Shown piece after piece: positions 652-19,066 of a stretch of 22,578 nucleotides of DNA; position 1 is the stretch's first letter, and each line of letters starts with the position of its first letter. The position numbers and the translations under genes were made by a program. Below the pieces are notes generated by a model. It saw nothing but the letters and a program-made list of their open reading frames with translations. It was not told the DNA's origin and did not search any database. The stretch comes from a virus. Lineage: Duplodnaviria; Heunggongvirae; Uroviricota; Caudoviricetes. The DNA lies in the IMG/VR virus record IMGVR_UViG_3300048577_000420, positions 1 through 22,578 of that record. One strand, 5' to 3'.

Positions 652-2466
652 TTAGGCGCCGCCGTCACTGGCGGGCGCTTGGCTGCCCTGTCCTGAGTCC
701 GTGCCACCGTCGGCCGGCTCACTGGGCGGCTCGGCTCGCGCAGTCGCCCCAGCAGCAACGCCGAGGAGGTGCTGCACGAACTCGGGCCCCTTTGCGATCT
801 TGTCGATCGGGTCCGTCGCCGCCGGGAACGTTCCGAGCGCCTCGCGAACCGCAGCAAGGCAGGCCGCGATGAGGTCGCTCGAGGCGATGGTGCCGGCGTC
901 TGCAAGCGCCGAAAGCTGACGAGGACTGTGCACCCGGGCCCCGAACTGTCGGGCCACGACCAACATCGCAAGATGGAATCGGAAGTTGGTTCTTTCTTGG
1001 GCACTCGCGCCAGCCTCGTCAGAGCTGAGGTAGCCGTCCACCGCCCGTTGCGTGCGCGCGAGCCACAAGTAAGTGGCGAGCGGAACGTCGCTCGAGAAGA
1101 TCTTCCGATAGTCGTCATCGCGCTTGAGTAGACTCGACGGTCGCGCGCGCGAATCGTCGGGCCGGCTCAGACCCATAGCCATCACCGCTTGGGCAAGCAG
1201 CGGAATGCCGATAATGCGATCGGGGCTCTTGCCTGCATTTCGATAGTAGTTCTTTCGGCGGTCATACCACCAGGAGTTCGCCGAGAAATACGACTCGATG
1301 TTGCGCTGGACTTCGTCGGTAGCGCGGAGAGAGGCGGCTGGCACGGACGTCTGTCGGTTGGTCGCCCGGATCACCTTGTCCCGAGTCGCCGCATCTCCTG
1401 CTATCACAAGTATGCGCACGAGGATCGCCCTGTCCCATGCGGGGTCGGCCAGTTCCGCGCCGTTTAGGGCGAGGAATATCGTATGGGACGTCTGGAGGCC
1501 ATTAACAATCTGGACATCATCGAGCGAGTACGTCTTGTTCGTGATGGTCGAGCGAGAGCACACGATCGTGACACCGTTGTTCAGCCACCAGAACTCGGGC
1601 CCGTCGGGGTCAGCGAGAGACTCGCTGATCTCGCGGTTCACCTCCACGTCCCCCTGGTAGTCGCGGACGTTCCAGTCAAAAATCTCTCGCCGCAGCTCAC
1701 CTGCCTGGTTTGTGAGGAAAGCGTAGTACTCACGCAGGGTAACGAGAGCAGCGCTGCCTGCAGTGGCGGACGCGTTCTCGAAATAGGTGAGTTGGGAGGT
1801 GTACGTCGCCACTTGGTTGTATCGAGCCCAAAGTTCACTCGCGCCGAGGAACTCGGTCTCCCCGCCCGCCTCCGATACAACCGCGCGAAACTGGCCCTCC
1901 AAGTCTCGCGCCTTGATTTGAACCTTGGTGTCAATGCCTTCGATCTTGCCCTTTGTCACGTAGCTGAACCGAGTGACAACTTTCGGGTGGCGACTCGCGA
2001 TCCGCGTCAGTGCCCTCCGGAAGAGACTGAACTTCGCTACGACGACGTCCGAGTAGAGCCCCCGCAGCGCTTCCTCGCTCTCGCCGAGATTCATCAGTCG
2101 CGACGCCGCTGAAGCAACCTTGTCGATTGCCGTCTCTGTGAATGACGTCTCGCGTTTGGCCTGTATGAGCCAAAGATCAAGGATGCTGCCCGGCGGGACC
2201 TTCGCCGGCGAGAAGTCATCGTCGAACACCTCGCTGTCTTCCGAGAGGAGCGCTCCGTTGAGGAACACGTAGATGGCGTCCAGTCCGCCATCATTGCCGC
2301 CACCGATGACGCCGTCAGCGACCTCGTCGACGGACAGGTCTCTTGACTTGATCACCTGTTGCGCCGCGAAGTGCTCGAAGGCCGTGTCCTCCTTCATCGG
2401 GATCGCTCGGTGCGTCTGCTGCTCCGCGAGCACCTGGTTGATGAGAACGACGTCGTTGTCCGCCAT
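652..2466 (-). CDS. AIPR family (abortive infection phage resistance) protein (604 aa)
   Basis: Motifs GNDGGLDAIY...IQAK (nuclease-like N-terminal part), IFDWNVRDYQG, VNREISESL, FWWLNNGVTIVC, QIVNGLQTSHTI and TNRQT match AIPR proteins. More A/T third positions than the phage-like genes. Confidence 0.9.
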   Translation of the reverse strand: MADNDVVLINQVLAEQQTHRAIPMKEDTAFEHFAAQQVIKSRDLSVDEVADGVIGGGNDGGLDAIYVFLNGALLSEDSEVFDDDFSPAKVPPGSILDLWLIQAKRETSFTETAIDKVASAASRLMNLGESEEALRGLYSDVVVAKFSLFRRALTRIASRHPKVVTRFSYVTKGKIEGIDTKVQIKARDLEGQFRAVVSEAGGETEFLGASELWARYNQVATYTSQLTYFENASATAGSAALVTLREYYAFLTNQAGELRREIFDWNVRDYQGDVEVNREISESLADPDGPEFWWLNNGVTIVCSRSTITNKTYSLDDVQIVNGLQTSHTIFLALNGAELADPAWDRAILVRILVIAGDAATRDKVIRATNRQTSVPAASLRATDEVQRNIESYFSANSWWYDRRKNYYRNAGKSPDRIIGIPLLAQAVMAMGLSRPDDSRARPSSLLKRDDDYRKIFSSDVPLATYLWLARTQRAVDGYLSSDEAGASAQERTNFRFHLAMLVVARQFGARVHSPRQLSALADAGTIASSDLIAACLAAVREALGTFPAATDPIDKIAKGPEFVQHLLGVAAGATARAEPPSEPADGGTDSGQGSQAPASDGGA

Positions 2467-4779: not shown

Positions 4780-5466
4780 CTAACCCTCCGCCGCGTCCAA
4801 CTGCTGGGACGTGAGCTGAATCAGGTCGGTCCCGCGAGGGAGACCCAGCCGGTCGGCCGCCTGTAGCGCCATCGCCTCGATGTCCGCTCGCGAACGCTGC
4901 ACGACGTCCTCGGCGTGCTCGGTCAGGGACTGCGAGGCGAAGGCCAGGTTGGAGCGGGCGTGGGTCGTGGCATCGCGGATCCGGCTCATCGCCGCTCGCC
5001 TCTCCTTGGCGGTGGCCTTCGGGTCCAGCGCGTCGTAGGCCGCCACGGCGCGCTCGATCGCCCCGAACGTCCGCTCCGCCGCGCCGCGGACCTCGTCCAT
5101 GCTGTGGGCGAGGCGGGGATCGAACTCCAGACCGGGCGTCGCGTCGATCCCCCCGTCGACCCGGGTCATCCGGATGGTCACCGGCACGGCGGACGTGCCC
5201 ATCGACGAGACGAACGACGCCCACTGCGCCTCGCTCATCTCGACCTCGGTGATGATGTGGTCGGGGTGGATCCAGTCGCGGTGTAGGTCGCGACGCCGGC
5301 TGGCCGTGGTCAGGGTCACGACCACTGTGTGGCCGTGCCGGATGTCCGAGTCGAAGAGCACCGCCCCCGGCACTGAGCTGCGCCGGACGACCTGCAGCGC
5401 CCCGAACGCGGGGTGGGTCTCCCTTCCGGTCTCGTCCTTCTCGACAGGCTTGATCTCGCGCTTCAC
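4780..5466 (-). CDS. Phage-type hypothetical protein (228 aa)
   Basis: Start re-called to GTG 5466 (AGAGGAG SD, GTGA overlap). HPAFG...LFDSDIRH...EVEMSEAQWASFVSSMG resembles a widespread phage hypothetical family. Confidence 0.8.
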   Translation of the reverse strand: MKREIKPVEKDETGRETHPAFGALQVVRRSSVPGAVLFDSDIRHGHTVVVTLTTASRRRDLHRDWIHPDHIITEVEMSEAQWASFVSSMGTSAVPVTIRMTRVDGGIDATPGLEFDPRLAHSMDEVRGAAERTFGAIERAVAAYDALDPKATAKERRAAMSRIRDATTHARSNLAFASQSLTEHAEDVVQRSRADIEAMALQAADRLGLPRGTDLIQLTSQQLDAAEG

Positions 5467-6086
5467 GCGCTCTCCTCTCTGGTAGCGCCGGCGGAGAGCC
5501 AGCGCGAGACGGTGGTCTTGCTGACCTGCAGCTGGTCCGCGATGGCCCGCTGGGTCATCCCGGCGGACCGCAGCTGGACCGCGCGGACCGCGAGCGTGAG
5601 GATCGGGGCCGCGGCCTGGTCTGCTTGGTCTTCGGTGAGGTCCACGAGCGGACCGCGCTGGTCCGCGGCGGGCGGGGCGATCGCCAGTCCCGTGACCGTG
5701 TGGGTCGCCGCGAGGATCCCCAGCGGGGCGAGGCTCGCGATGCAGGCGCCGGCGGCGGTCCGCCAGTCCCCCGCGTCCCGCGATCCCAGGACGTGCGCGG
5801 CGTTGGCGGCCACCGAGACGAGCGTGAACGTGGCCAGGGCGGTCCAGGAGAACCGCGTGGACTCGCCGCGGGCCCGCTGGACGGCGATCGCGAGCGTGTA
5901 GGCCAGCAGCGCGCCGTCGACGAACACGGGCACGCCCCAGCGCAGGGCCGGCGGCAGGGCGGCCCACTCAGCGACGGCCACGAGGCCAGCGAAGGAGACC
6001 GCGAAGCTCACCAGGCCCAGGAACGCAACGAGGCCCGTGGTCGCAATGACCACGGGCCTCGTGTCGGGGTTGATGCGCGCCGTCAT
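5463..6086 (-). CDS. DUF2637-like multi-pass membrane protein with C-terminal HTH (207 aa)
   Basis: ATGA overlap start at 6086; four hydrophobic segments with SFAVSF..L, PVFVDG and SVAANAAH; C-terminal GMTQRAIADQLQVSKTTVSRWL helix-turn-helix. Confidence 0.8.
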   Translation of the reverse strand: MTARINPDTRPVVIATTGLVAFLGLVSFAVSFAGLVAVAEWAALPPALRWGVPVFVDGALLAYTLAIAVQRARGESTRFSWTALATFTLVSVAANAAHVLGSRDAGDWRTAAGACIASLAPLGILAATHTVTGLAIAPPAADQRGPLVDLTEDQADQAAAPILTLAVRAVQLRSAGMTQRAIADQLQVSKTTVSRWLSAGATREESA

Positions 6087-6235
6087 GCGCTGCCCCCGTT
6101 CGCCTCGGCGAGGTGCGCGTCTCCGGCCAGGCGGGCCGCCTCCCGCGTGGGGAACGGGCCCTCGCGCCACGGGCAACGACAGCCGACGTCGACGCCACCG
6201 GACGGCAGGGTCACGGTGGCGGTCATGTGGATCAT
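6083..6235 (-). CDS. Small hypothetical protein (50 aa, MIHMTAT...GCRCPW...)
   Basis: Not in the ORF track. Fills the gap exactly, with TGATG overlap upstream and ATGA overlap downstream. Confidence 0.6.
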   Translation of the reverse strand: MIHMTATVTLPSGGVDVGCRCPWREGPFPTREAARLAGDAHLAEANGGSA

Positions 6236-6450
6236 CACTTCCAGTCCCTCCCGTTCTCCGGGACGACCCGGGTGCGCCGCAGGACGTTGACGGGACGCCG
6301 ACCCTTGGTGATGGTCCGGCGCTGGGCCGGGGCCATCCGCCGCTGGTCCGTCTGCGGCCGGCCGAGCTTCTCCGGCTCGCCGGCCTCCTTGCCGATCTCG
6401 ACGTACGAGGTCGACACGCGGGCCATGCTCATGTTGGTGACCTCGGTCAT
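6235..6450 (-). CDS. Small basic hypothetical protein (71 aa)
   Basis: ATGA overlap with the RuvB-like gene; coupled to the next ORF. Confidence 0.6.
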   Translation of the reverse strand: MTEVTNMSMARVSTSYVEIGKEAGEPEKLGRPQTDQRRMAPAQRRTITKGRRPVNVLRRTRVVPENGRDWK

Positions 6451-7469
6451 GCCGCCATCCCCTCCACCAGGGCCGCGGCGCGCTCGACGCCCTCGGCCGT
6501 GAGCTCGCGGCCCTGCGGAGCGATGCGCAGCAGCCCCTTCTGGATGAGCAGCTTCTCCGTGTGGCGGGGCGGCGTCGGCTCGCCCAGCGCCTGGGCGATG
6601 GACTTCTCGCCGCCGCGGAAGTTCGGCTGGGTGAAGAGGATCGCGAGGTACTGCTGGGCCAGGCGGTCGAGGCCGTCCGGCGTCAGGCCGGACCAGCGGT
6701 ACATCGCGTCCATCGGGTAGGTGTCGACGTCAGCCGTGAGGCCGTCCGCGAGGGCGCTGTCGCGCAGGATCTTCAGGAGCTGGGTGATCGCCCGGGGGTT
6801 GCAGTTCGCGGCCTCCACGATCGCCCGGCGGTTCCACTCGGACGGCATCGCCATGCCGATCGAGCAGAAGATCCCGCGGGCCGAGACCTGGACGATCTGC
6901 TCGGCCTCCGCCGGGGTGTACGACTCCAGCACGGGCTTCACGGTGAAGCGCGACAGGATCGCCTCGGGGAGCTTCTGCGCGTCGGTCGTCGCGGCGATGA
7001 TCGTCACGTTCGGCACGCGGGTGATGCCGGTCGCCGTGACGATGACGCCGTCCTGCAGGTAGGAGAGCAGCCACTCGACCTTCGCCTTGCCGGCGGAGAC
7101 CGCGTTGTGGATCTCGTCCCAGAACAGGATGTCGCCGTCCTGCATCGCCGTGAGGATCCGGATCGCGTCGCTGACGTCGACCGGCCCCTGGACCTCGGCG
7201 AGGCCGACCTCCATCTCCTGGGCCACGAGGCGCACCAGCGCGCTCTTGCCGATGCCGGCCGTGCCAGAGGCGATGAGGACGTGGTCCAGGCGGGTGCGGC
7301 GGAACTTCGCCGAGAGCGCGGCGGCCCGCAGGAAGCCCTTGGCCTCGTCCTGGCCGACGTAGTCCTTCCAACGGGTCGGGTAGTCGGTGCCCTCGAACAG
7401 AGCCGCCCCGCGCTTGGGGCCGGGGCGGTTGGCGATGCGGTTCTGCAGCAGGGTGTTGGTGCTCGTCAT
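6447..7469 (-). CDS. ruvB: RuvB-like AAA+ helicase / branch-migration motor (340 aa)
   Basis: Start re-called to ATG 7469. PTRWKDYVGQ, LDHVLI, Walker A GTAGIGKS, GDILFWDEIH (Walker B), AATT (sensor I), LSRF (Arg finger), NPR (sensor II), GLDRL and a winged-helix-type tail LIQKGLLRIAPQGR. Divergent homologue, not the host ruvB. Confidence 0.85.
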   Translation of the reverse strand: MTSTNTLLQNRIANRPGPKRGAALFEGTDYPTRWKDYVGQDEAKGFLRAAALSAKFRRTRLDHVLIASGTAGIGKSALVRLVAQEMEVGLAEVQGPVDVSDAIRILTAMQDGDILFWDEIHNAVSAGKAKVEWLLSYLQDGVIVTATGITRVPNVTIIAATTDAQKLPEAILSRFTVKPVLESYTPAEAEQIVQVSARGIFCSIGMAMPSEWNRRAIVEAANCNPRAITQLLKILRDSALADGLTADVDTYPMDAMYRWSGLTPDGLDRLAQQYLAILFTQPNFRGGEKSIAQALGEPTPPRHTEKLLIQKGLLRIAPQGRELTAEGVERAAALVEGMAA

Positions 7470-8020
7470 GCGTTCTCCTCTCGGGGGCCGAACGTCTTGC
7501 GCAGCGTGTCGCGTGCGGGGGTGTCGGAGGCGGTCGGGGGGTTGGGGTCGACGTCGTCGTCGGCGGGGGCCAGGAAGCCCTCGGCGAGCATCGCGGCGAG
7601 CATGTTCGCGTCGCCGACGTACCCGGTGCCCGAGGGCTTGAGGACGAGGGTGCGGCCGTCCAGCCAGTGGCGGAGCGCATCCTCGGGGGACCCGTCGCCG
7701 AGTGGCTCGGCGGCGAGGGTGACGGTGGTGCTGGCGCTGGGCAGGCGCAGCGCCGCCTCCAGCGTCGCGACGTCCATGAAGGCGTCCAGGGCGTCGTCGT
7801 CCGGCACGGAGCCGGCCGGGACTGGATCGCCCTTGGTGACGTCGGGGTGCATCGCGATGAAGGTCTGCACACGGGAGATGGCGCGCTGGAGCGACTCCAG
7901 GGCCGGCGTGAGCTCGGCGATCGGGCGATCGTTCGGGAGCGCATCGGCGGCGAGCGTGAGCTTCATGACCTCGGTGCTGACCGCGCCGAACACCTCGCTC
8001 GCCTTCTTCATCATGGTCAT
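7466..8020 (-). CDS. Hypothetical protein (184 aa)
   Basis: TGATG and ATGA overlaps on both sides; AAGGAG upstream; GC3 bias. Confidence 0.75.
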   Translation of the reverse strand: MTMMKKASEVFGAVSTEVMKLTLAADALPNDRPIAELTPALESLQRAISRVQTFIAMHPDVTKGDPVPAGSVPDDDALDAFMDVATLEAALRLPSASTTVTLAAEPLGDGSPEDALRHWLDGRTLVLKPSGTGYVGDANMLAAMLAEGFLAPADDDVDPNPPTASDTPARDTLRKTFGPREENA

Positions 8021-9003
8021 CAGATCTCCTTCCCGGCCGCGAACTCGCGCGCGAGCGCCGCGAGGGACTTCTTCGCCACGTCGGACGCTCCGGCGGTGCG
8101 GTCGAGGCTCTCATCGAGCAACTCGGAGTAGTGGGCGGTGCGCTCCATGATCGCCGAATACCGGTCGCGGAGGGCCTTGTACGTCTTGGGCGTAATGGCG
8201 GTGGTTCGGGCCTTCTGGAGATCCACCACGAGCTCGCTCAACGCGGCGTCATTGTCGTCCTGGAATGCCGCGAGGATGTGCTCTCTCTGATCGGCAAGAT
8301 CCACGAGGGGGATGAGGTCCACCTTGCATCCCTTCAGCGTGCCCACGGCCTCCGCGAACCGACGGAGCTCGTCCGCGTGGGCAATGGGCACGAAGTGCAC
8401 CGAGCTCTTCAGTGGGACCGACTGCAGCCGCACCCGGAGGTAAGACAGGATCATGGCACGGATGCGCGTGCCCTCCAGCGAGTTGAGGTAACGGTCGTAG
8501 TCGCGGCGCACGGATGCACCCAGACGGCGCAGGTGCTCCATCTCGCCGGGCTGGAGCTTGGCGTCGGACGGTGCGAACTGGAACCGGGCGCCGCTCTCGT
8601 CGACGATGCCGCCGCGACGCGGCGCGCGGTAGAGGCGCACCTCACCGGCGTACTCCCAGCCCAGGGCGCTGCGCGAGTCGACACGCAGCTCGCGCATGAT
8701 GACGCGCAGCGAGACCTCGGACGGGTTCGGCGCCGCGACCTCGCGGAACTGGACCCGCGCCTCGACGTCGGCCGCGATCTGGTACTTCCACTCGTCGTGG
8801 TTGCGGAGCGCCTTCTTGAACGCGTCCACCGATCGCGAGACCGGCGGGATCTGGCTCACGTCGAGCCGGCGCGCCTCGAACTCCTCGACCAGCCGCGCGC
8901 GGTCGTGCTCGGCGTCGGCGCCCAGCGTGAGCGCGACGTAGCCCAGCAGCGCATCCTCCGGAAGACGCCCCGACGCGTCGAGGTATGCCTTCAACTTGCT
9001 CAT
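8020..9003 (-). CDS. Hypothetical protein, DUF6744/DUF3150-like (327 aa)
   Basis: N-terminal LLGYVALT...IPPVSRSVDAFKKALR and later SSVHFVP recall the DUF6744/DUF3150 proteins that accompany AAA/vWA genes in mobile elements. Recognition only; the ORF itself is well supported (GGGGAGG SD). Confidence 0.6.
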   Translation of the reverse strand: MSKLKAYLDASGRLPEDALLGYVALTLGADAEHDRARLVEEFEARRLDVSQIPPVSRSVDAFKKALRNHDEWKYQIAADVEARVQFREVAAPNPSEVSLRVIMRELRVDSRSALGWEYAGEVRLYRAPRRGGIVDESGARFQFAPSDAKLQPGEMEHLRRLGASVRRDYDRYLNSLEGTRIRAMILSYLRVRLQSVPLKSSVHFVPIAHADELRRFAEAVGTLKGCKVDLIPLVDLADQREHILAAFQDDNDAALSELVVDLQKARTTAITPKTYKALRDRYSAIMERTAHYSELLDESLDRTAGASDVAKKSLAALAREFAAGKEI

Positions 9004-9023
9004 GGTCCTCCCCTCTCATGACG

Positions 9024-9053
9024 GAGGCCCGCCCCCCGAAAGGGACGGGCCTC
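9024..9053 (-). other. 13-bp RNA hairpin with UUCG tetraloop
   Basis: Minus transcript GAGGCCCGUCCCU-UUCG-GGGGGCGGGCCUC; the DNA-level mismatches are U.G pairs only on this strand. Confidence 0.7.
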
Positions 9054-9054
9054 G

Positions 9055-9078
9055 CGATTCGTGCGCTAGCAGGAAGCG
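9055..9078. promoter_or_regulatory. Palindromic operator-like motif, copy A
   Basis: CGATTCGTGC-GCTA-GCAGGAAGCG; imperfect dyad, 23/24 identical to 22206-22229. Confidence 0.7.
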
Positions 9079-10557
9079 TCAGGATTGACGCATGATGTCC
9101 CGAACTTGCTGGACATCGGTGAGGTCGGCGACCGTCCTCAAGTCGTCGGCGATCTGGGCGAGCACAGCGGGCATTCCGCCGTGCCCGGACGTGACATAGA
9201 TCCCGAAGCACTTCGCCGTGAGACGGCGCCGGGATTCCGTCCACTCGTCGATGAATGCCGGCACGGGCGCCTGGCCGTCGGTGATGAAGACGATGTCCGG
9301 CCGCGCCTTGTCCGACGCACGGATGAGGTCGAGCGCCCGCCTGAGCGGCTTGTCGAAGGACGTGCCGCCGTTCAGGAAGCCCTCCGCCATGTCGAGCACG
9401 TCGAGCTGGTTCACGCGGCCGGCCGGGAACGAGAACTCCCGGAGCCCCTCGTACTCGGACCCGAAGCCGATGTAGTGGAAGTCGCGCTTCTGCCGCCGCG
9501 CCTGGTCGAGCAGCGCGAGGGCGAGGCCCTTGGCCCACATCTCGCCCGGCCCGTCCATCGAGCCGGACTCGTCGGCCACCACGATGATCGGGCCGCGGCC
9601 CTCGCGCTCGCGACCACGCAGCCGCTTGATGAGCAGGCCGCCCTCGACGTACCGACGCCAGAAGTCGTCCTCCGTCTCGGGCGAGGCCAGGTTGATCAGC
9701 TCCTGGGTGGTGAGGCGCGTGAGGTCGTTGCCGAACTCGACGCCCACCGCCTCGTCGGCGGCGTCGGTCACCCGGCGCCGGTACTCGGCAGACGCCAGCT
9801 GGCGGAACGCGCCGATCAGCTGGGCGAACTGCCGGAGCTTCTCGCCGGAGAGCCGCTGGGCCAGCGCGGCGCGCTCCTTGAACGACAGCCGCTGGAGCGA
9901 GCCCGGATCGATGCCGTACTGCAGCGCCGTCTCGTTCTCCTGCTCCGCCTGCTCGGCGGCGTCGTTCAGCGACTGGCGCAGCCCGTTGCGCAGGCCCGCC
10001 GAGGTGGCCTCGGCCTCGGCCTGCAGCTGGTCGGACATCTCCTGCGCCTGCTGGGCCGCCTCGTCGGCCGCCTGCTGGAGGTTCGGATCGCCGGGCGCGC
10101 CGGCGGCCTGCTCCGCAGCGTCACGGGCCCGCTCGCGGGCCTGCTGGGCGGCCTGGGCCTGCTCGCGCAGCTCCTTGGCCCGCTCCAGGGCCGTGTGGAG
10201 CGGCTTCTTGAGCGAGAGCATCCCCATCGCCGACGCGTAGTTGTCCGCGACGGTGAAGTTCCGAAGACGCTGGAGCTCGGGCAGGGACGCCATGTCCTGC
10301 ACGATCTGCCGGTTGGGGATGTGCGTGGCGCGCATCTCGTCCCGGGTGCGGAGCTCGGGGTCGCCCTTGGCCAGGAGGTTGAAGACGTCCTGCGTGAAGT
10401 CCTCGACGTAGTCGTAGGTCTTGCGCAGCCCGCCGACCATCTCGTCGAGCGCGGTGGAGTCCTCGCGGACCTCGTCCCACATCGCCTTGTCGAAGCGGTC
10501 GAACGGCACCGCGTCGGTGTGCTCCTGCTCGGGGTCCATCCAGTCGAACACGGTCAT
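9079..10557 (-). CDS. vWA (MIDAS) domain protein, ViaA-like (492 aa)
   Basis: C-terminal IIVVADESGSM (DxSxS), GGTSFDKPL and DIVFITDG; helical Ala/Gln-rich middle; directly downstream of the MoxR-type ATPase. Confidence 0.9.
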   Translation of the reverse strand: MTVFDWMDPEQEHTDAVPFDRFDKAMWDEVREDSTALDEMVGGLRKTYDYVEDFTQDVFNLLAKGDPELRTRDEMRATHIPNRQIVQDMASLPELQRLRNFTVADNYASAMGMLSLKKPLHTALERAKELREQAQAAQQARERARDAAEQAAGAPGDPNLQQAADEAAQQAQEMSDQLQAEAEATSAGLRNGLRQSLNDAAEQAEQENETALQYGIDPGSLQRLSFKERAALAQRLSGEKLRQFAQLIGAFRQLASAEYRRRVTDAADEAVGVEFGNDLTRLTTQELINLASPETEDDFWRRYVEGGLLIKRLRGREREGRGPIIVVADESGSMDGPGEMWAKGLALALLDQARRQKRDFHYIGFGSEYEGLREFSFPAGRVNQLDVLDMAEGFLNGGTSFDKPLRRALDLIRASDKARPDIVFITDGQAPVPAFIDEWTESRRRLTAKCFGIYVTSGHGGMPAVLAQIADDLRTVADLTDVQQVRDIMRQS

Positions 10558-10572
10558 CGCCTCCCTCGGGGC

Positions 10573-11727
10573 TCAGTCCTCGATGCCGAGGTGCTTGATG
10601 CCCTCCGCCTTGATCTCCGCGGCCTGGGCCAGCAGCGTGTCGATGACGCGGGTGGGCCGGCCGTTCGCCTGGACCTTGGCCAGGAGCTTCTTGGCGGCCT
10701 TCTCGATCTTGTTGACCTTGCCCATCGCCTCGGGGATGTAGGCGAAGAGCTTGTCCTCCGCCTCGCCCTCCTTGGCCCGCATGGTGGCGCGGATCTCGGC
10801 GAGCTCGTCCGCCAGGCCGGCGGCCTCGTCGGCGTCCGGGGACGCCACGGCGAGGATCGTGCGCTCGACCTTGGCCTTCTGCTCCAGGTCCTCCCAGAGC
10901 GTGTAACGCAGCGCGTAGAGGTCCTCGACCTCCGCGACGGCACGGCCGGCGAGCCAGGCCTGCGCCCGCACGACCTTCATCGACTCGCGCCAGCGGCGGT
11001 CCGAGACCGTGATGCCGAGCTTGCGCAGGTCGCCGCGGATCCGCAGGACCCCGTCGAGGACGTCGTCGAGCAGCACCACCTTCTCGACCTCGCCGCACGC
11101 CACCACGAGGTCGTCGTAGCTGATCGTGGTCGTGGTGCTCGGCGCGGAGGCGCGCTCCATGAGGCCCTTGAAGTCCGCGTCCGAGGCGATGTAGTCGACG
11201 ACGCACCGGAGCAGCAGGCGGTCCCAGAGCGCGGCCTCGTCCTCGCTCTCGGAGGCCGGCAGCTCGTTGCTGGCGGTGAAGGCCGAATGGAGCGGGATGT
11301 CGATGGCCGAGCGCTTGCCGTTGACCTCGTGCTTGATCCGCTCGTTGAGCGCGGCGAGAAGGTCGTGGCCGAGGGTCGGGCTGGCCTTGCCGACCTCGTC
11401 GAGGAAGGCGAACTCGACCGCGGTGAGGTAGCCCTCGTCCTTGCGGCGGAACTCGCCCTGGTCGCGCAGGAGCGGCAGGTCGTACGGGCCGAGCACCGCG
11501 GAGTCGGGCCGGTTCTTGCTGAGCAGCTGCTCGAAGTAGCGCGCACCGTCGATGCGGTCGACGAAGGCGCGCACGAGGAGCGACTTGCCGGTGCCGGGCG
11601 GCCCCAGGGTGAAGCTGTGCTGGCGCGTGAGCGCGGCCAGGATCATGCAGTCGACGGCGTCGGCGCGCTCGTAGAAGCCCTCGTTGAGCTCGCTACGGAT
11701 TGCGGCGATCGCCTGAGCGGTGGTCAC
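10573..11727 (-). CDS. MoxR/RavA-type AAA+ ATPase (384 aa)
   Basis: GFYERADAV, Walker A GPPGTGKS, FLDEVGKAS, LLAALNER, ASNELP, ALWDRLLLR and SDRRW match the RavA subfamily. Confidence 0.9.
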   Translation of the reverse strand: MTTAQAIAAIRSELNEGFYERADAVDCMILAALTRQHSFTLGPPGTGKSLLVRAFVDRIDGARYFEQLLSKNRPDSAVLGPYDLPLLRDQGEFRRKDEGYLTAVEFAFLDEVGKASPTLGHDLLAALNERIKHEVNGKRSAIDIPLHSAFTASNELPASESEDEAALWDRLLLRCVVDYIASDADFKGLMERASAPSTTTTISYDDLVVACGEVEKVVLLDDVLDGVLRIRGDLRKLGITVSDRRWRESMKVVRAQAWLAGRAVAEVEDLYALRYTLWEDLEQKAKVERTILAVASPDADEAAGLADELAEIRATMRAKEGEAEDKLFAYIPEAMGKVNKIEKAAKKLLAKVQANGRPTRVIDTLLAQAAEIKAEGIKHLGIED

Positions 11728-11784
11728 GCGGGTTCTCCTCCTTCTGGGGACGGTTGACGTTGCGGTGGTCGATGGCGAGCGGCA

Positions 11785-11904
11785 TCAGAGGCCCAGCCGC
11801 GCGTCGCGGTAGCGCTCGTAGGCGTCGTCGGGGTCGGGCTCGTCGTCGTCCTCGCCCTCACGGGTGAGCCAGCGCTCCAGCTGGGCGTCGGTCGGCGAGC
11901 GCAT
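11785..11904 (-). CDS. Small acidic protein (39 aa, MRSPTDAQLERWL...)
   Basis: TGATG overlap with the upstream gene and GGAGG SD. Confidence 0.6.
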   Translation of the reverse strand: MRSPTDAQLERWLTREGEDDDEPDPDDAYERYRDARLGL

Positions 11905-12410
11905 CAGTCCTCCGTGGGGCCGACGGCGAGCACCGCGAACTGGGCCACGAGGATGACTTCCTCCCCGGGGCCGAGCGGCTGGCGGGCGACGCTCTCGGCG
12001 GCCCGAGCCATGACCCAGCCGGTCGCGCTCTCCTCCGAGCGCTCCGCGGGCTCGACGAAGGCGTGGTCCTTGATGTCGAGCTCCGGGAAGCCGCTCTGCT
12101 CGGGCTGGTCGGCGTGCTCGGCGCGGCAGGTGCCGCAAGCGGCGCACGGCTCGGAGGCGTTGATCTGCTCCAGCGTCATCGGGTAGTAGGTGTCCGGTCC
12201 GACGTCGGTGTACGGGGCGCCGGCGATGATGCTGAGCGGGCCCTCCGGGAAGCGCCCGCGGATCGCGATGATCGAGTTCGGCTTGCAGGTGCAGACCGTC
12301 GGCAGCAGCTCCGGGAAGTCGGCGGCGGCCGGCCAGTTGTGCAGCCCGCAGTCGCTCTTGTGCCCGCAGCTCTCGCACGACGCGGGGTGCTCGACCGTGT
12401 AGTCGCGCAT
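11904..12410 (-). CDS. Cys/His-rich, probably metal-binding hypothetical protein (168 aa)
   Basis: CESCGHKSDCGLH, CTC and CAACGTC; GAGGAG SD. Confidence 0.75.
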   Translation of the reverse strand: MRDYTVEHPASCESCGHKSDCGLHNWPAAADFPELLPTVCTCKPNSIIAIRGRFPEGPLSIIAGAPYTDVGPDTYYPMTLEQINASEPCAACGTCRAEHADQPEQSGFPELDIKDHAFVEPAERSEESATGWVMARAAESVARQPLGPGEEVILVAQFAVLAVGPTED

Positions 12411-12420
12411 GTCTCTCCTC

Positions 12421-13320
12421 TCAGTAGACGGGCAGCAGCGCCAGCTGGTCAGCGGTCGCCGCGGTGATGGGCAGGTCGGTGCGCTGCCCGCGGTACACGG
12501 GGAAGCGCAGGGTGTTCTCGCGCGTGCGGTTGAGCGCGTCGACCTCGATCGCGAACATCTCGCCGGCGTCGAGGCGCCCCTGCAGGACGGCCTCCTCGCG
12601 GGCGCTCCAGCCGGTGCCGACCTTGCCGATCGGGATCGGCCCGTCCTCGCCGAGGAGCGCCAGCAGGATGGCGCCGAAGTCGCGCCGCTGGCCCTGCTCG
12701 TAGCCCGCGGCGATCGCCGTGAGCCGCTGGACGGCCTTGAACTTGACCCAGGAGGAGGCGCGCTCCCCCGGCAGGTAGAAGCTCTTGCGGAGCTTGACGA
12801 TGATCCCCTCGCCGCCGGCGGCCACGACCTCGTTCCAGAGGCCGAGGATGTCCCCGGACTGGCGCACGGGCCGCACGATCCTGCGGTTGCCGATGACCCC
12901 GCGCATGAGGGTGAGCCGGGTGTGCAGCGGCTGGGTCATGAGCGACTGGCCGCCGGAGCGGAGGAAGTCGAACGCCTTGAAGTAGCAGGGGTTCGCCTTC
13001 GCGGCCGCGGCGTACGCGCCGGTCTGCTTGTCACGCGTCGCCACGGTGCTGAAGAGCCCGTCTCGCGCGACGATCTCGCCGTCCAGGACGACGTCGCCGG
13101 CGGGCAGGCGGACGCGAGCGATCTCGGGGAAGCGCGCGGTGATGTCGATCATGCTCCGGTTCACGAGCCGGACCCGGTCGCCCTCCTGGTAGAGGATCGC
13201 GCGGATGCCGTCGACCTTCTCCTGGGCGATCCACTCGCCGCGGCCGGCGAGGTCGGTGAGGAGGATGGGCTGGCGGTTGCTGGCGCCCGAACTGGGCACC
13301 GCGAGCATCGGACGGATCAT
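12421..13320 (-). CDS. Minimal ATP-dependent DNA ligase (299 aa)
   Basis: Start re-called to ATG 13320. PMLA, EKVDG (motif I KxDG), LDGEI, AFD, EGIIVK, WVKFK and an OB-fold tail LRFPVY; no LigD polymerase or phosphoesterase domain. Confidence 0.92.
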   Translation of the reverse strand: MIRPMLAVPSSGASNRQPILLTDLAGRGEWIAQEKVDGIRAILYQEGDRVRLVNRSMIDITARFPEIARVRLPAGDVVLDGEIVARDGLFSTVATRDKQTGAYAAAAKANPCYFKAFDFLRSGGQSLMTQPLHTRLTLMRGVIGNRRIVRPVRQSGDILGLWNEVVAAGGEGIIVKLRKSFYLPGERASSWVKFKAVQRLTAIAAGYEQGQRRDFGAILLALLGEDGPIPIGKVGTGWSAREEAVLQGRLDAGEMFAIEVDALNRTRENTLRFPVYRGQRTDLPITAATADQLALLPVY

Positions 13321-13331
13321 GAGGCCCCCTC

Positions 13332-14081
13332 TCAACGGAAGATGTCGTGGGTGTGGATCGTGGGGTCGATGCCGGGCCGCTTGAGGCGGGTCACGTGCAC
13401 CCCGTCTCGCTGGCTGACGGCGAAGGTGCGGACGGCTGAAGGGCTCCAGTGCGGGTGCCGTGCGAGCTGCTCCGCGTGGGCCTCGCGCCACGCCGCGCAC
13501 CAGGCCTCCGCCTCCTCGCGGCTCAGGTGGGCTGACCACACGTGCTCGTCCCTGCGCATGGGGTTGGTCTCGGTGACGCACCACGTGCCCGGCGGTAGGA
13601 CGGCCTCCTCCTGGAGGGCGTCGAGGTAGAGGTAGGCCCGGAGCCGGGCGCCAGGCTCGGGGTGCGTGAACAGCGCAGGCAGCGCCGCCAGCATGGCCGC
13701 GGGGTCGGGCATGACCTCCTCGGTGTCCCGAGGGCTCATCGGCGGTGCGGTGTGGTGGCCGTTCTGCGCCAGGAAGGGCTTCAGCTCGGGGAGGTTGGCG
13801 GGCGGCCACGCCGCCGGCCGCTCCTCGTCCAGGTGGACGTACGGCACGACGTGGGCGATCCGGTACTCGCCGTCCTCATCCCAGTAGGCCAGCTGGATGC
13901 CCTCGGGAGTCGTGCTCATCGAGGCCATCGGGTCGCCGCTCTGGTTGTCGTGGATGATGACGTCGTCGCCCTCCTCCTCCCCATTGGGGAGGCGGAGGGC
14001 GAACCAGAAGTCGCCGCTGAGCGAGAAGGCGTGCACACCCGGCTGCGGCTCGTCGGCCTCCAGGTCCTCCTGGGTCGTCAC
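13332..14081 (-). CDS. Hypothetical protein with acidic N-terminal region (249 aa)
   Basis: GTG start overlapping the Ku stop (GTGA); sits between ku and the ligase gene. Confidence 0.75.
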   Translation of the reverse strand: MTTQEDLEADEPQPGVHAFSLSGDFWFALRLPNGEEEGDDVIIHDNQSGDPMASMSTTPEGIQLAYWDEDGEYRIAHVVPYVHLDEERPAAWPPANLPELKPFLAQNGHHTAPPMSPRDTEEVMPDPAAMLAALPALFTHPEPGARLRAYLYLDALQEEAVLPPGTWCVTETNPMRRDEHVWSAHLSREEAEAWCAAWREAHAEQLARHPHWSPSAVRTFAVSQRDGVHVTRLKRPGIDPTIHTHDIFR

Positions 14082-14917
14082 GCGACGGCCGCCTTCTTGC
14101 GCGACCGCGGCGCCTTCTTCGTCGCCGCGCCGGCGCCCGCGACCTGCGCGGCGAGCTTCGCCATGAGGTCGGCGACGTTGGCGGCCGGCGTCGCGACGGT
14201 CGCGCCCTCGGTGGCGATCACCTCGCGGCCGGCCACGATCTCGGCCATGCGCTTCTCGAAGGTAGAGGCGTAGGTCTCGGGGTCGTAGTCGGTGATCTGC
14301 CCGGGGAGCGCGAGTATCTGCTCGGCGAGCTGGACGAGCGCCTCGGGCACGTCGGCGTCGATCGCCGGCGCCTCGCGGACCTCGCCGGCACGCGTCCGCT
14401 CCTGCAGGACCAGCGCGCCGCCGTACACGCGCACCTGGAACTGGGAGGCGGAGGATCGGGGCGTCCACTGGGTCATGAACGCCAGGTCGGGGTGGGCCTC
14501 GATGAGCGCCCGGAGCGTGCCGTAGGTCGCCTCGTGGCCCTTCTCGGGCGCGAGGAAGTACATCTTCTCCCCCACGCTCGTGAGGACCTCGACCTGGGGC
14601 GCCGGGTGGGCGGAGACGTCGGCCTTCTTCTTGAACTTCTCGGCGTCGGCGTTCGCCTCCGCCAGGTCCTCCGCGGTCAGGAGGACGAGTCCGCCCTCGA
14701 CCGGCCGAGCCTTCTTGAGCTGCTGGGCGGGCACCTCGCCGCACGTGCCGCAGACCCGCGGCTGGCTGATGCGCTTGGGCTCGTGGCTCCCGAGCCCGTC
14801 GCAGACCATGACGTTGCCCGTGCTGCCGGTCTTCTCCAGCGCCGAGGTCATGCTGACCGAGGTCGAGATGACCCCGAAGGACAGGGCCACGCCCGAGGCG
14901 ATGCTGCGTGCTGCCAT
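14078..14917 (-). CDS. ku: Ku-like DNA end-binding protein (279 aa)
   Basis: MAARSIASGVALSFGVISTSV (compare Ku MR.IW.G.ISFGLV.IPV), RISQPRVCGTCGEV, VLLTAEDL, YFLAP, and a basic Lys/Ala tail KKAPRSRKKAAVA. Divergent. Confidence 0.85.
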   Translation of the reverse strand: MAARSIASGVALSFGVISTSVSMTSALEKTGSTGNVMVCDGLGSHEPKRISQPRVCGTCGEVPAQQLKKARPVEGGLVLLTAEDLAEANADAEKFKKKADVSAHPAPQVEVLTSVGEKMYFLAPEKGHEATYGTLRALIEAHPDLAFMTQWTPRSSASQFQVRVYGGALVLQERTRAGEVREAPAIDADVPEALVQLAEQILALPGQITDYDPETYASTFEKRMAEIVAGREVIATEGATVATPAANVADLMAKLAAQVAGAGAATKKAPRSRKKAAVA

Positions 14918-17379: not shown

Positions 17380-17403
17380 TCCTTTCTGCTGGCGCAGGAA
17401 TCG
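17380..17403. promoter_or_regulatory. Palindromic operator-like motif, copy C
   Basis: The reverse complement of 17381-17405 matches 9053-9077 at 21/25; one half-site is GCAGGAATCG. Confidence 0.55.
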
Positions 17404-17471: not shown

Positions 17472-18494
17472 TCAGGAAGCGGTGACGAGGTCGCCACCGA
17501 CGTACGGGATCGCCCGGTCGACCGCGTCGATGCGGCGGCCCAGCCAGGCGGCCGTGCCGGTGTGGATCGCGTTGCCGAGCGCCGTCCACCGCTGGCTGTC
17601 GGGCATCCCCTCGGTCCAGCCGTCCGGGAAGCCCTGAAGGCGCTCCCACTCGGTGAACGTGAGGGTGCGGAGGCGCCCGTGCTGGGCGATGAGGTGCGTC
17701 TGGCGGAGGGCGTTGCCGGAGTCGTTGCCAGTCAGCGTGTTGGTGTGCGTGGCCGGGACCCAGGTCTCGTAGCCGCCGGCAGAGAGCGCGGCGCGAGCTC
17801 GGGCGGACTTGCGCCAGATCACGGCTCCAGCAGGTCCGACAGGGCCTGGAGCAGGGCGGGGTCCGCCTTCGAGCCCGCCGAAGCGACGCGCGGCAGCAGC
17901 TTGCGCGCCTGCTCCGTCGTCACCCAGAACCGCCCATGCGGGTCGGGGGTCTCCTCCACGATGGCCGACCACGAGAACTCGACGGCGTCGCTGGGCTGTA
18001 CCGAGGTGTCCCCCGTCCACCACCCGGTAGGCCCACCCATACCCGAGGTCTTCCAGTCCACCCGCGACGGCAGCGAAGTCGTGCCCGGTCCGGCGGGGAC
18101 TCGTGAGAAGCCCTTCGGGGTTCTCGATGACGACCCATCGGGGTCGGGTCTCGTCGACCAGTCGGAGGTGCTCTTCGAGGAGTCGGTGGAACTCCCAGAA
18201 GAGGCCGGAGCGAGTGCCAGCGAGCCCAGCACGGTTGGGGGCGGCGATGCTGGTGTCCTGGCAGGGGAAGCCTCCGCAGAGGAGGTGGGGTCGCCCGAGG
18301 GCGGTCGCCTTGACGTCACGGATGTCTCCTTCCAGGGGGGTCTCGGGGAAGTGCCGGCGGAGCACCGCCTGGGCGGCCGGGTTGATCTCGACCATGAGGT
18401 TGTTGTGCCAGTTCAGCGGGGCGAAGCCGACCTCGAAGCCGCCGATCCCGGTGAAGGTCGAGGCCCACTCGAAGGGCTCTCGGCGCGCGTCCAC
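17472..18494 (-). CDS. C5 cytosine DNA methyltransferase, large polypeptide (340 aa)
   Basis: Start re-called to GTG 18494 (GGAGG SD). Motif I FTGIGG, IV GGFPCQ, SGLF, VI ENP, VIII QRRRRV, IX-like ERLQGFPD, X LGNA. Confidence 0.92.
   Translation of the reverse strand: MDARREPFEWASTFTGIGGFEVGFAPLNWHNNLMVEINPAAQAVLRRHFPETPLEGDIRDVKATALGRPHLLCGGFPCQDTSIAAPNRAGLAGTRSGLFWEFHRLLEEHLRLVDETRPRWVVIENPEGLLTSPRRTGHDFAAVAGGLEDLGYGWAYRVVDGGHLGTAQRRRRVLVVGHRGGDPRPAWAVLGDDGAGAQAAAARRFGGLEGGPRPAPGPVGPAGAVIWRKSARARAALSAGGYETWVPATHTNTLTGNDSGNALRQTHLIAQHGRLRTLTFTEWERLQGFPDGWTEGMPDSQRWTALGNAIHTGTAAWLGRRIDAVDRAIPYVGGDLVTAS
17819..18319 (-). CDS. Nested alternative-frame ORF, candidate small (beta) subunit of the methyltransferase (166 aa)
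   Basis: GTG preceded by AAGGAG at 6-nt spacing; C-terminal WKTSGM...WWT...QPS...FSWSAIVEE...RFWVT...LLQAL resembles the beta polypeptides of M.EcoHK31I-type enzymes. Confidence 0.7.
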   Translation of the reverse strand: MTSRRPPSGDPTSSAEASPARTPASPPPTVLGSLALAPASSGSSTDSSKSTSDWSTRPDPDGSSSRTPKGFSRVPAGPGTTSLPSRVDWKTSGMGGPTGWWTGDTSVQPSDAVEFSWSAIVEETPDPHGRFWVTTEQARKLLPRVASAGSKADPALLQALSDLLEP

Positions 18495-18505
18495 GGTGCC
18501 TCCTC

Positions 18506-19066
18506 TCAGGGGTGCAGGAAGGGGTCCAGGAGGGCCTGGACCTGGGCCACGACGCTGACGGGCGCCGTGTAGCGACGGGTGAGGAGCATCTGGCGGCCGC
18601 GGAGCACGACGCCCGTGGGGACGCCCCACTCGACGGTGACGCGCTCCTCGGCGTCGATCGCGCCGATCTGGCTGGCGAACGCGGCGACCTGGGCCTCGAC
18701 GTCGGGGTTGGGCTCGTCCATCGACACACGCGGCTCGTGCTCGTCGAGGGCGCGGTCCCAGTGGTCGTACCGCGTCCACGTCATGCCGAGGCCGATGTCG
18801 TAGAGGCCCTCGGCGTCCGGCTCGATGCGGCTCGGGGTCTCCGGGTACTCCGGGCTCGTGACGACGAGGGTTTCGCCGTCGAAGACCCACGTGTCGAGGG
18901 TCACGGCGTACGGGCTCGCCGCCGTCAGGACGGCGATCTGCTCGATGACGCGCCGGTTGGTCATCCACTCCGCCCAGCCGTTCCAGGCGCGGAGGAAGTA
19001 CCCCTCGAACGCCGGGTCGGGCTGGTCGTCGCCGGTGAACCAGTCACCGGTGAACCAGGTCCTCAC
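18506..19066 (-). CDS. Hypothetical protein (186 aa)
   Basis: GTGA overlap start at 19066 with GGAGG SD; FEGYFLRAWNGWA motif. Confidence 0.75.
   Translation of the reverse strand: MRTWFTGDWFTGDDQPDPAFEGYFLRAWNGWAEWMTNRRVIEQIAVLTAASPYAVTLDTWVFDGETLVVTSPEYPETPSRIEPDAEGLYDIGLGMTWTRYDHWDRALDEHEPRVSMDEPNPDVEAQVAAFASQIGAIDAEERVTVEWGVPTGVVLRGRQMLLTRRYTAPVSVVAQVQALLDPFLHP

Follow-up and report, generated by a model that had tools for sequence, protein, structure and literature searches.

A triad of MoxR, vWA and DUF6744 genes on phages and plasmids: a candidate early remodeller accompanied by a RuvB-like motor in an actinobacterial prophage

Pairs of a MoxR-class AAA+ ATPase and a vWA-domain protein are already known from viruses and plasmids, where they have long been annotated without a known client. 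Two cases are precedents for anti-defence by ATPases of this class, of other or unplaced subfamilies: the genes vcrx089-090 of the IncC plasmid pVCR94, whose deletion revealed an anti-restriction effect (PMC7498323) and whose protection of IncC plasmids from type I restriction-modification has been confirmed (PMC11602122), and the MoxR gene of Bas54, which is needed against DS-28 (10.1101/2025.11.20.689424). In phage 0305phi8-36, a deletion removing the MoxR and vWA genes together with eight others leaves the phage viable, with smaller plaques and no loss of titre (PMC3357382), which fits an accessory function. Here we describe a MoxR-vWA locus from the viral genome IMGVR_UViG_3300048577_000420 (Caudoviricetes). 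The window, that is, the whole stretch analysed (22.6 kb; 22,578 nucleotides), is the start of a single contig of 86,578 bp with a GC content of 70.7%, classed as a complete provirus. What our analysis adds to the known pairs is a protein of the family DUF6744 as their constant third gene, and thus a concrete candidate for the client. We tentatively favour, at slightly less than an even chance, the idea that the MoxR-vWA-DUF6744 triad is an early counter-defence or DNA-establishment remodeller of phages and large plasmids.

A previous sequence-only reading of the window recognized five consecutive, co-oriented genes with two distinct AAA+ families, and these are indeed present on the minus strand at 6447-11727. 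All five are convincingly coding, with a GC content of 0.90-0.98 at the third codon position versus 0.42-0.50 at the second and a ribosome-binding site of the GGAG/GAGG type at each start. The first gene (10573..11727, minus strand) encodes a RavA-like MoxR AAA+ ATPase of 384 amino acids (Pfam bpMoxR 119 bits, AAA_lid_8 61 bits, AAA_5 50 bits), whose motifs (Walker A GPPGTGKS at 42, Walker B DE at 110-111, SNE at 153, DR at 169 and SDRR at 242) are kept in 90% or more of the 23 rows of an alignment. It scores 175 bits with the NCBIfam RavA model, for which the cut-off is 681, and the match spans model positions 8-331 of 498. The second gene (9079..10557, minus strand) encodes a ViaA-like vWA adaptor of 492 amino acids (Pfam VWA_2 30.6 bits, above the cut-off; NCBIfam ViaA 70 bits, cut-off 500). 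Its metal ion-dependent adhesion site (MIDAS) is made up of DESGSM at 329, GGT at 397 and TDG at 426, and D329, S331, T399 and D427 are invariant across 104 homologues, the DxSxS motif being intact. Walker A/B, sensor and arginine-finger motifs are all intact in the MoxR-class AAA+ protein, as is the MIDAS in the adjoining vWA protein, and the two genes are a MoxR-vWA pair in the general sense. The third gene (8020..9003, minus strand) encodes a DUF6744 protein of 327 amino acids (PF20529, 50.1 bits with a cut-off of 27, model positions 40-293 of 314). It is followed by the gene for a lineage-specific accessory protein of 184 amino acids without a known family (7466..8020, minus strand; no Pfam, PHROG, NCBIfam, Atlas or structural match) and by that for a divergent RuvB-like AAA+ motor of 340 amino acids (6447..7469, minus strand; RuvB_N 75 bits, RuvB_C 24.4 bits, just below the cut-off of 24.7). 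Stop and start codons overlap among these last three genes.

The sequence-only reading took all five genes as one candidate module. Its suggestion of a conserved and apparently undescribed module of mobile elements is upheld by the occurrence of the triad on both phages and plasmids, but the five-gene unit dissolves on comparison, as the core three genes occur without the RuvB-like or the 184-residue gene. Judged by gene neighbourhoods, the conserved unit is the triad, the RuvB-like gene is an add-on of one lineage and the 184-residue gene is optional. Among 13 non-redundant relatives from high-GC phage-like contigs (referred to below, as other loci are, by working numbers such as L022), the genes follow one another as MoxR-vWA-DUF6744-RuvB-like throughout, though with insertions that vary. 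MoxR and vWA genes lie upstream of DUF6744 in all ten loci with enough flanking sequence, even though the identity of the DUF6744 proteins falls to about 21%. The RuvB-like gene is found in 13 of 13 loci (shortened in L022), and homologues of the 184-residue protein occupy the same slot in six and are lacking in seven. Outside this high-GC lineage no RuvB-like gene was seen in the flanks fetched, though the triad persists.

The DUF6744 family is large, comprising 1001 clusters at 50% identity. We found it on 20 plasmids from about six genera in three phyla (Nocardia, Streptomyces, Rubrobacter, Brevibacillus, Alicyclobacillus and Pseudanabaena), with a vWA gene at most 5 kb away on each of the 19 plasmids checked, and all three genes of the triad are encoded by the phages MTATph1 (from Moorella) and 0305phi8-36 (from Bacillus). 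Distances in the MoxR, vWA and DUF6744 trees correlate over 22 loci (Spearman coefficients of 0.73-0.82), an agreement that shows joint inheritance only and not co-evolution. The linkage is strong, not absolute, because some sampled genomes have DUF6744 without an adjacent vWA gene. In a survey of 400 sampled genomes of one phylum, centred on an assembly labelled Bacillota, eight genomes besides the centre carry DUF6744 above the cut-off; three of them have the triad within 10 kb, two have a vWA gene on another contig and three have no vWA match. A stand-alone DUF6744 gene is exemplified by L045 (genome G364, 9544-10512), whose genome has no match to the vWA profile of the module. No paper describing DUF6744 or the MoxR-vWA-DUF6744 triad was found, nor one on RavA/ViaA with a prophage and RuvB or on CobT/AAA anti-defence, in a literature search that most subscription papers fall outside.

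Several relatives of the triad have a content of their own. Nine cyanobacterial vWA-positive plasmids carry another family, usually in the slot of DUF6744; on plasmids of Acaryochloris and Chroococcidiopsis (L060, 5826-7154; L062, 2750-4159), this family of 440-470 amino acids precedes the same MoxR-vWA subfamily and replaces DUF6744. A likeness of this slot family to DUF3150 was considered and discarded, as its score of 21.7 lies below the shuffled maximum of 26.2, and we do not claim that the families are interchangeable. The archaeal halovirus HVTV-1 has an unannotated DUF6744 homologue (gp25; L057, 9815-10966; 94 bits); 15 kb from it is a more distant AAA-vWA pair, formed by an AAA_5 ATPase with a vWA protein. 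On an Alicyclobacillus plasmid, AcrIIA9, a DUF6094-helicase pair and dnaN lie beside the triad, and on a Pseudanabaena plasmid (L058, 9950-16570) an AAA_24 gene, ssb and a pair of JAB and ThiF/E1-like genes come after it.

The DUF6744 protein was modelled with confidence (predicted local distance difference test score of 96). According to the model it has a split core, comprising a first strand (19-27), a helix-strand-strand-helix-strand stretch (178-234) and then three long helices, into which a five-stranded antiparallel insert (about 70-175) is placed. The core resembles ChrB_N/PaaX-type proteins in the Atlas (template modelling score of 0.68 by target over 150 residues). Foldseek found no match in the PDB at E<=0.001, and the only part that VIA-align matched was the bundle of three helices at the C-terminus (Z up to 11.5), as is common for bundles. 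A model of DUF3150 had the same outcome in fold searches, and the absence of a clear solved fold for the DUF6744 model does not show that the fold is new. Most of the conserved positions hold hydrophobic or basic residues (the latter being K63, K64, R87, R100, R104, R126, R182, K199, R240 and R288), and no acidic residue is conserved above 83%. Some ten conserved lysines and arginines without a highly conserved acidic residue fit nucleic-acid binding better than a metal-dependent nuclease, and DUF6744 is, from its residue conservation, probably a non-catalytic protein that binds nucleic acid. Its length is uniform across elements (about 300-365 amino acids), and it is full-length with the same conserved residues also in elements without RuvB. 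A prediction of the vWA-DUF6744 complex returned a score of 0.00, which is no verdict and is used neither way.

The RuvB-like protein has a full-length, three-domain match to RuvB structures (E 1e-23, about 30% identity), and Walker A, DEIH, sensor I, the arginine finger, the NPR sensor II and a terminal GR are retained in all 13 aligned copies. It shares this architecture and these ATPase motifs with bacterial RuvB of the RuvAB complex, from which it differs in a short hairpin and in the lack of a phage ruvA. Its RuvB equivalog scores stay under the cut-offs (118 of 299 bits for TIGR00635, and also 137 of 282 bits). The presensor-1 hairpin, through which bacterial RuvB binds RuvA, is 14 residues long (from Asp to Pro) versus 22 in the bacterial protein, that is, 8 residues shorter. 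RuvB of Pseudomonas aeruginosa needs three arginines in the head domain (PMC10071043), of which, as mapped by motif, only the last is invariant in the RuvB-like copies. Searches with working positive controls found no RuvA_N in three phage genomes (G000, which is the present prophage, G002 and G003; 97-100% complete) and no RuvA_C in G000; a host RuvA is a possible partner. Its sequence features suggest a motor that is still active but has ceased to function within a standard RuvAB. A 173-residue product of the prophage (G000, 78348-78869) appears RuvC-like by eye and has no Pfam match at E 0.001, and the related phages L007 and L018 carry PF02075 RuvC, so that these phages may have RuvB and RuvC without RuvA. 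A RuvB lacking RuvA beside phage Ku and ligase genes is a second question of interest raised by this locus. The ATP-dependent DNA ligase (LigD-ligase-like; 12421..13320, minus strand; Pfam DNA_ligase_A_M and A_C) and the Ku-like protein (14078..14917, minus strand; Pfam Ku 30 bits, cut-off 25) are co-conserved neighbours of the module, both present in nine of the nine related high-GC phage loci with enough flank. On this point the neighbourhoods of related loci support the sequence-only reading: in the present phage lineage the module is accompanied by genes for Ku, ligase and a RuvB-like protein.

The block contains a candidate repressor operator between the vWA and DUF6744 genes, directly after the vWA stop codon: a copy, with one mismatch, of the 18-bp palindrome TTCCTGC-N4-GCAGGAA (9058..9075, no strand assigned). 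Seven sites with at most one mismatch occur in the 86.6-kb genome, and none in each of eight Markov simulations; two further copies lie up the same arm at 17383 and 22209. Next to it, upstream of the DUF6744 ribosome-binding site, is a GC-rich RNA hairpin of 13 bp without a U-tract (9024..9053, minus strand), the junction folding at -40 kcal/mol (z -3.0). A hairpin at the same junction is strong in L001, L018 and L019, weaker in L052 and absent from L004 and L006. Scans for sigma-70 promoters and U-tract terminators returned nothing in 6000-12500. As far as such motifs can tell, this operator-like site within the block is in keeping with an early lytic operon that would be repressed in the lysogen, with a possible control point between MoxR-vWA and the DUF6744, 184-residue and RuvB-like genes.

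In the scenario that we tentatively prefer, the triad would be expressed early after entry or induction and help the DNA of the element to establish itself against host barriers. The MoxR protein, in which the motifs are observed, would hydrolyse ATP as a hexamer, as its family suggests; the vWA protein, for which the pairing of genes is observed, would serve as its MIDAS adaptor if it binds as in RavA-ViaA; and the DUF6744 protein, observed to be co-inherited with both, would be a dedicated third subunit, probably one that binds DNA. It might either be loaded on and recycled from element DNA by the ATPase, or direct the ATPase to a DNA-bound defence complex of the host. The outcome, by analogy, would be a better survival of the incoming genome in the face of restriction-type or other defences. 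Besides the co-inheritance of the three genes and the precedents from other MoxR-class ATPases, this scenario has in its favour the genes nearby (a C5 methyltransferase in the prophage arm; AcrIIA9, the DUF6094-helicase pair and dnaN in Alicyclobacillus; ssb in Pseudanabaena), the operator-like palindrome and the conserved basic residues of DUF6744. In the actinophage lineage the triad would share a DNA-protection arm with Ku, ligase and a RuvB-like motor independent of RuvA; these three would probably act in parallel to the triad machine and outside it, in end joining and in the processing of junctions or forks. If true, counter-defence would here proceed by ATP-driven remodelling and not by mimicry or DNA modification, and it would bear on the unexplained anti-restriction activity of the IncC proteins Vcrx089-090.

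A number of observations weigh against this scenario. A defence-related target of the triad is plausible by analogy, but the anti-defence ATPases tested so far belong to other subfamilies (the CbbQ type in IncC), and Bas54 is not among the matches of our search for homologues of the module. The constant Ku, ligase and RuvB neighbours fit a plain role in DNA repair equally well, and the triad copies on Streptomyces, Nocardia and Rubrobacter plasmids have no recognizable anti-defence neighbours. With a median isoelectric point of 6.1, DUF6744 is not basic overall. Nor is it always linked to the pair, considering the three Bacillota genomes that have DUF6744 and no vWA match, and the 32 vWA-positive plasmids, of which 18 have a DUF6744 match and 14 have none.

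The alternative that the triad is part of DNA-transaction housekeeping appears to us somewhat unlikely. DUF6744 would then be a DNA-binding recombination or replication-restart factor whose turnover depends on MoxR-vWA, and together with Ku, ligase and the RuvB-like protein it would handle circularization and break repair regardless of defences. The presence of Ku and ligase (9/9) and of the RuvB-like gene (13/13) in the related phage loci agrees with this, as do the dnaN, ssb, helicase and primase genes that lie near the triad on plasmids and in large phages, the smaller plaques of the 0305phi8-36 deletion mutant on a plain laboratory host (PMC3357382) and the aid that phage Ku gives to genome circularization (Pitcher 2006, as cited in PMC12848934). 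Yet the triad also resides on plasmids and Bacillota elements with no Ku, ligase or RuvB nearby, and no DNA-processing neighbour is constant across phyla. It is improbable that all five genes make up one machine, in which the chaperone pair would load the DUF6744 protein, the 184-residue protein and the RuvB-like motor on DNA, with one of the former two replacing RuvA. Such a machine would account for the fixed order of MoxR, vWA, DUF6744 and RuvB in the lineage, for the translational coupling of the last three genes after an operator-like site, and for a shortened RuvB hairpin in phages without ruvA; it is at odds with the 184-residue gene missing in 7 of 13 loci, with up to nine unrelated genes separating DUF6744 from RuvB in L020, and with intact DUF6744 proteins in RuvB-less elements.

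We see a similarly small chance for a host takeover in the style of RavA-ViaA, the pair acting on respiratory, membrane or metabolic complexes of the host with DUF6744 as a specificity adaptor. RavA and ViaA are the best NCBIfam matches, and complex I and fumarate reductase are their reported partners (PMC3893208, PMC10585395), but the scores lie far under the equivalog cut-offs, the C-terminal part of RavA is missing (the match ends at 331 of 498), and the triad occurs in aerobes, anaerobes and cyanobacteria with differing respiratory chains, beside DNA-related genes. Still less probable is an element-encoded defence or superinfection system of the nucleoside triphosphate-dependent ternary type (MoxR-vWA plus an effector) that would protect the lysogen or plasmid host. 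Ternary conflict systems with MoxR-vWA have been described (PMC7159879), the present ATPase does match bpMoxR and the prophage has an AIPR gene; against this, no VMAP, beta-propeller or enzymatic effector domain was recognized in the block or related loci, the uniform length of DUF6744 is unlike the variability of effector slots, and the block, which lies in an early arm behind operator-like sites, also occurs in the lytic phage 0305phi8-36. Finally, a chaperone of virion assembly, as proposed for MoxR-vWA of Acidianus two-tailed virus and jumbo phages (PMC7824862), has a weak similarity to bicaudavirus MoxR proteins in its favour. We gave it hardly any weight and rejected it for the plasmid copies: the occurrence of the triad on conjugative and mobilizable plasmids argues against a virion role, the block is far from the head and tail genes and on the opposite strand, and the genes can be deleted from 0305phi8-36 with the titre kept (PMC3357382).

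The five-gene block belongs to a long minus-strand arm of mostly small genes, shared with Ku, ligase and a C5 cytosine methyltransferase (17472-18968, minus strand; Pfam 143 bits), an enzyme also encoded near L052, L053 and L055. The prophage has a serine integrase and a primase-helicase as well, and head and tail genes occupy the plus strand from about 38 kb. From the GC content and the WhiB and Lsr2 genes on related contigs we infer that the host is an actinobacterium. Downstream of the block, a gene at 5463-6086 (minus strand) encodes a DUF2637 membrane domain fused to a C-terminal helix-turn-helix; in L006, L007 and L009, too, it comes after the RuvB-like gene. The prophage end is a stretch of lower GC content (about 60%) with a gene for an AIPR-domain protein of 604 amino acids (652-2466, minus strand; Pfam 120 bits), which looks like an acquired defence-associated gene. 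Outside the window, a DUF4406 domain is fused to a dATP/dGTP diphosphohydrolase domain (G000, 79420-80394; L068, 12420-13391), an enzyme type linked to modified phage DNA and possibly another anti-restriction measure.

The sequence-only reading had called the 327-residue protein DUF6744/DUF3150-like. The first half of this label stands by Pfam, and all 135 homologues of the protein match DUF6744; the second finds no DUF3150 match by sequence or profile. PF11348 is not among the families listed for these homologues, DUF6744 being the only one matched by more than three of them, and the profile-profile probability between DUF6744 and DUF3150 is 0.2-0.5%, or at most 3% on trimmed cores, which is not significant. 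In both models the core strands and helices follow one another in the same sequence, but the inserts differ (about 30-175 in DUF6744; 23-54 and 100-145 in DUF3150), and the lists of strong matches do not overlap. One mycobacteriophage Dylan protein of 275 amino acids is matched by both models (E 2e-4 and 0.029), and from these models a remote homology is possible. The protein is apparently gp94 of Dylan (cluster O; L056, 12933-13760), an assignment by length only; its gene follows one for a classical AAA ATPase and is near Ku, and Dylan is a phage in culture. A bolder idea, which we regard as doubtful, is that a single fold has diverged into DUF6744 and DUF3150, and that a MoxR-class ATPase, a vWA protein and a DUF6744/DUF3150-type subunit form a single counter-defence machine of phages, plasmids and archaeal viruses, which would use ATP-driven remodelling to dismantle defence complexes of the host on incoming DNA and would be coupled in actinophages to a RuvA-independent RuvB motor and a phage pair for non-homologous end joining.

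The sequence-only reading had also drawn a comparison with IncC plasmids. The gene layout that it gave does exist (AAA-hyp-ssb-bet-exo-DUF3150-VWA in a row on pVCR94), but the anti-restriction phenotype was mapped to vcrx089-090 and is not that of the DUF3150 and VWA genes, which are located past the five genes that were depleted in the screen (PMC7498323). The idea that the module is a direct actinobacterial counterpart of the IncC hde cluster could not be sustained either: Vcrx089 is of the CbbQ type and the IncC vWA protein of the CobT type, and neither is recognized by the profiles of the module. We thus rejected orthology of the module ATPase to that of hde, which is of a different subfamily. 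Nor do RuvB, Ku and ligase appear to replace Red-type genes, since the replication arm of the prophage encodes a PD-(D/E)XK nuclease and an AAA_24 protein, which we take to be Sak4-like, and since the triad often has neither set nearby.

The hde operon (pVCR94 vcrx089-093, after which come the DUF3150 and VWA genes) and its SXT/R391 homologues share some traits with the present module: a mobile element has a MoxR-class ATPase together with a vWA gene and one for a DUF protein of about 300-420 amino acids, beside break-repair genes. They differ in that Vcrx089 combines AAA_5 with CbbQ_C, whereas the module ATPase has AAA_lid_8 and no CbbQ_C; the module profile scores Vcrx089 at only 3.5 bits, and Vcrx090, whose gene has no Pfam domain, does not match DUF6744. 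The module block is without a homologue of vcrx090, ssb, bet or exo, and SSB, RecT and YqaJ have no match among the five genes or the flanking genes scanned. Escherichia coli RavA-ViaA is similar in its adjoining MoxR and vWA genes of the same order, its AAA_lid_8 lid and its intact Walker and MIDAS motifs, whereas the module is found on mobile elements, leaves the C-terminal third of the RavA model unmatched and has DUF6744 as a constant third gene. The same MoxR and vWA subfamily (30-41% identity), with DUF6744 in the same genome, is represented by gp66/gp63/gp46 of 0305phi8-36 and CDS0115/0114/0119 of MTATph1; in these phages, only the ATPase and the vWA protein are annotated ('metalloprotein chaperonin'), with the third gene unlinked to them, and the flanks fetched contain no RuvB-like, Ku or ligase gene. 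The mycobacteriophages Omega and Corndog, in turn, resemble the prophage in having a phage Ku in an early leftward actinophage arm, but they use the LigD of the host, whereas here Ku is accompanied by a phage ligase, the MoxR-vWA-DUF6744 triad and the RuvB-like gene.

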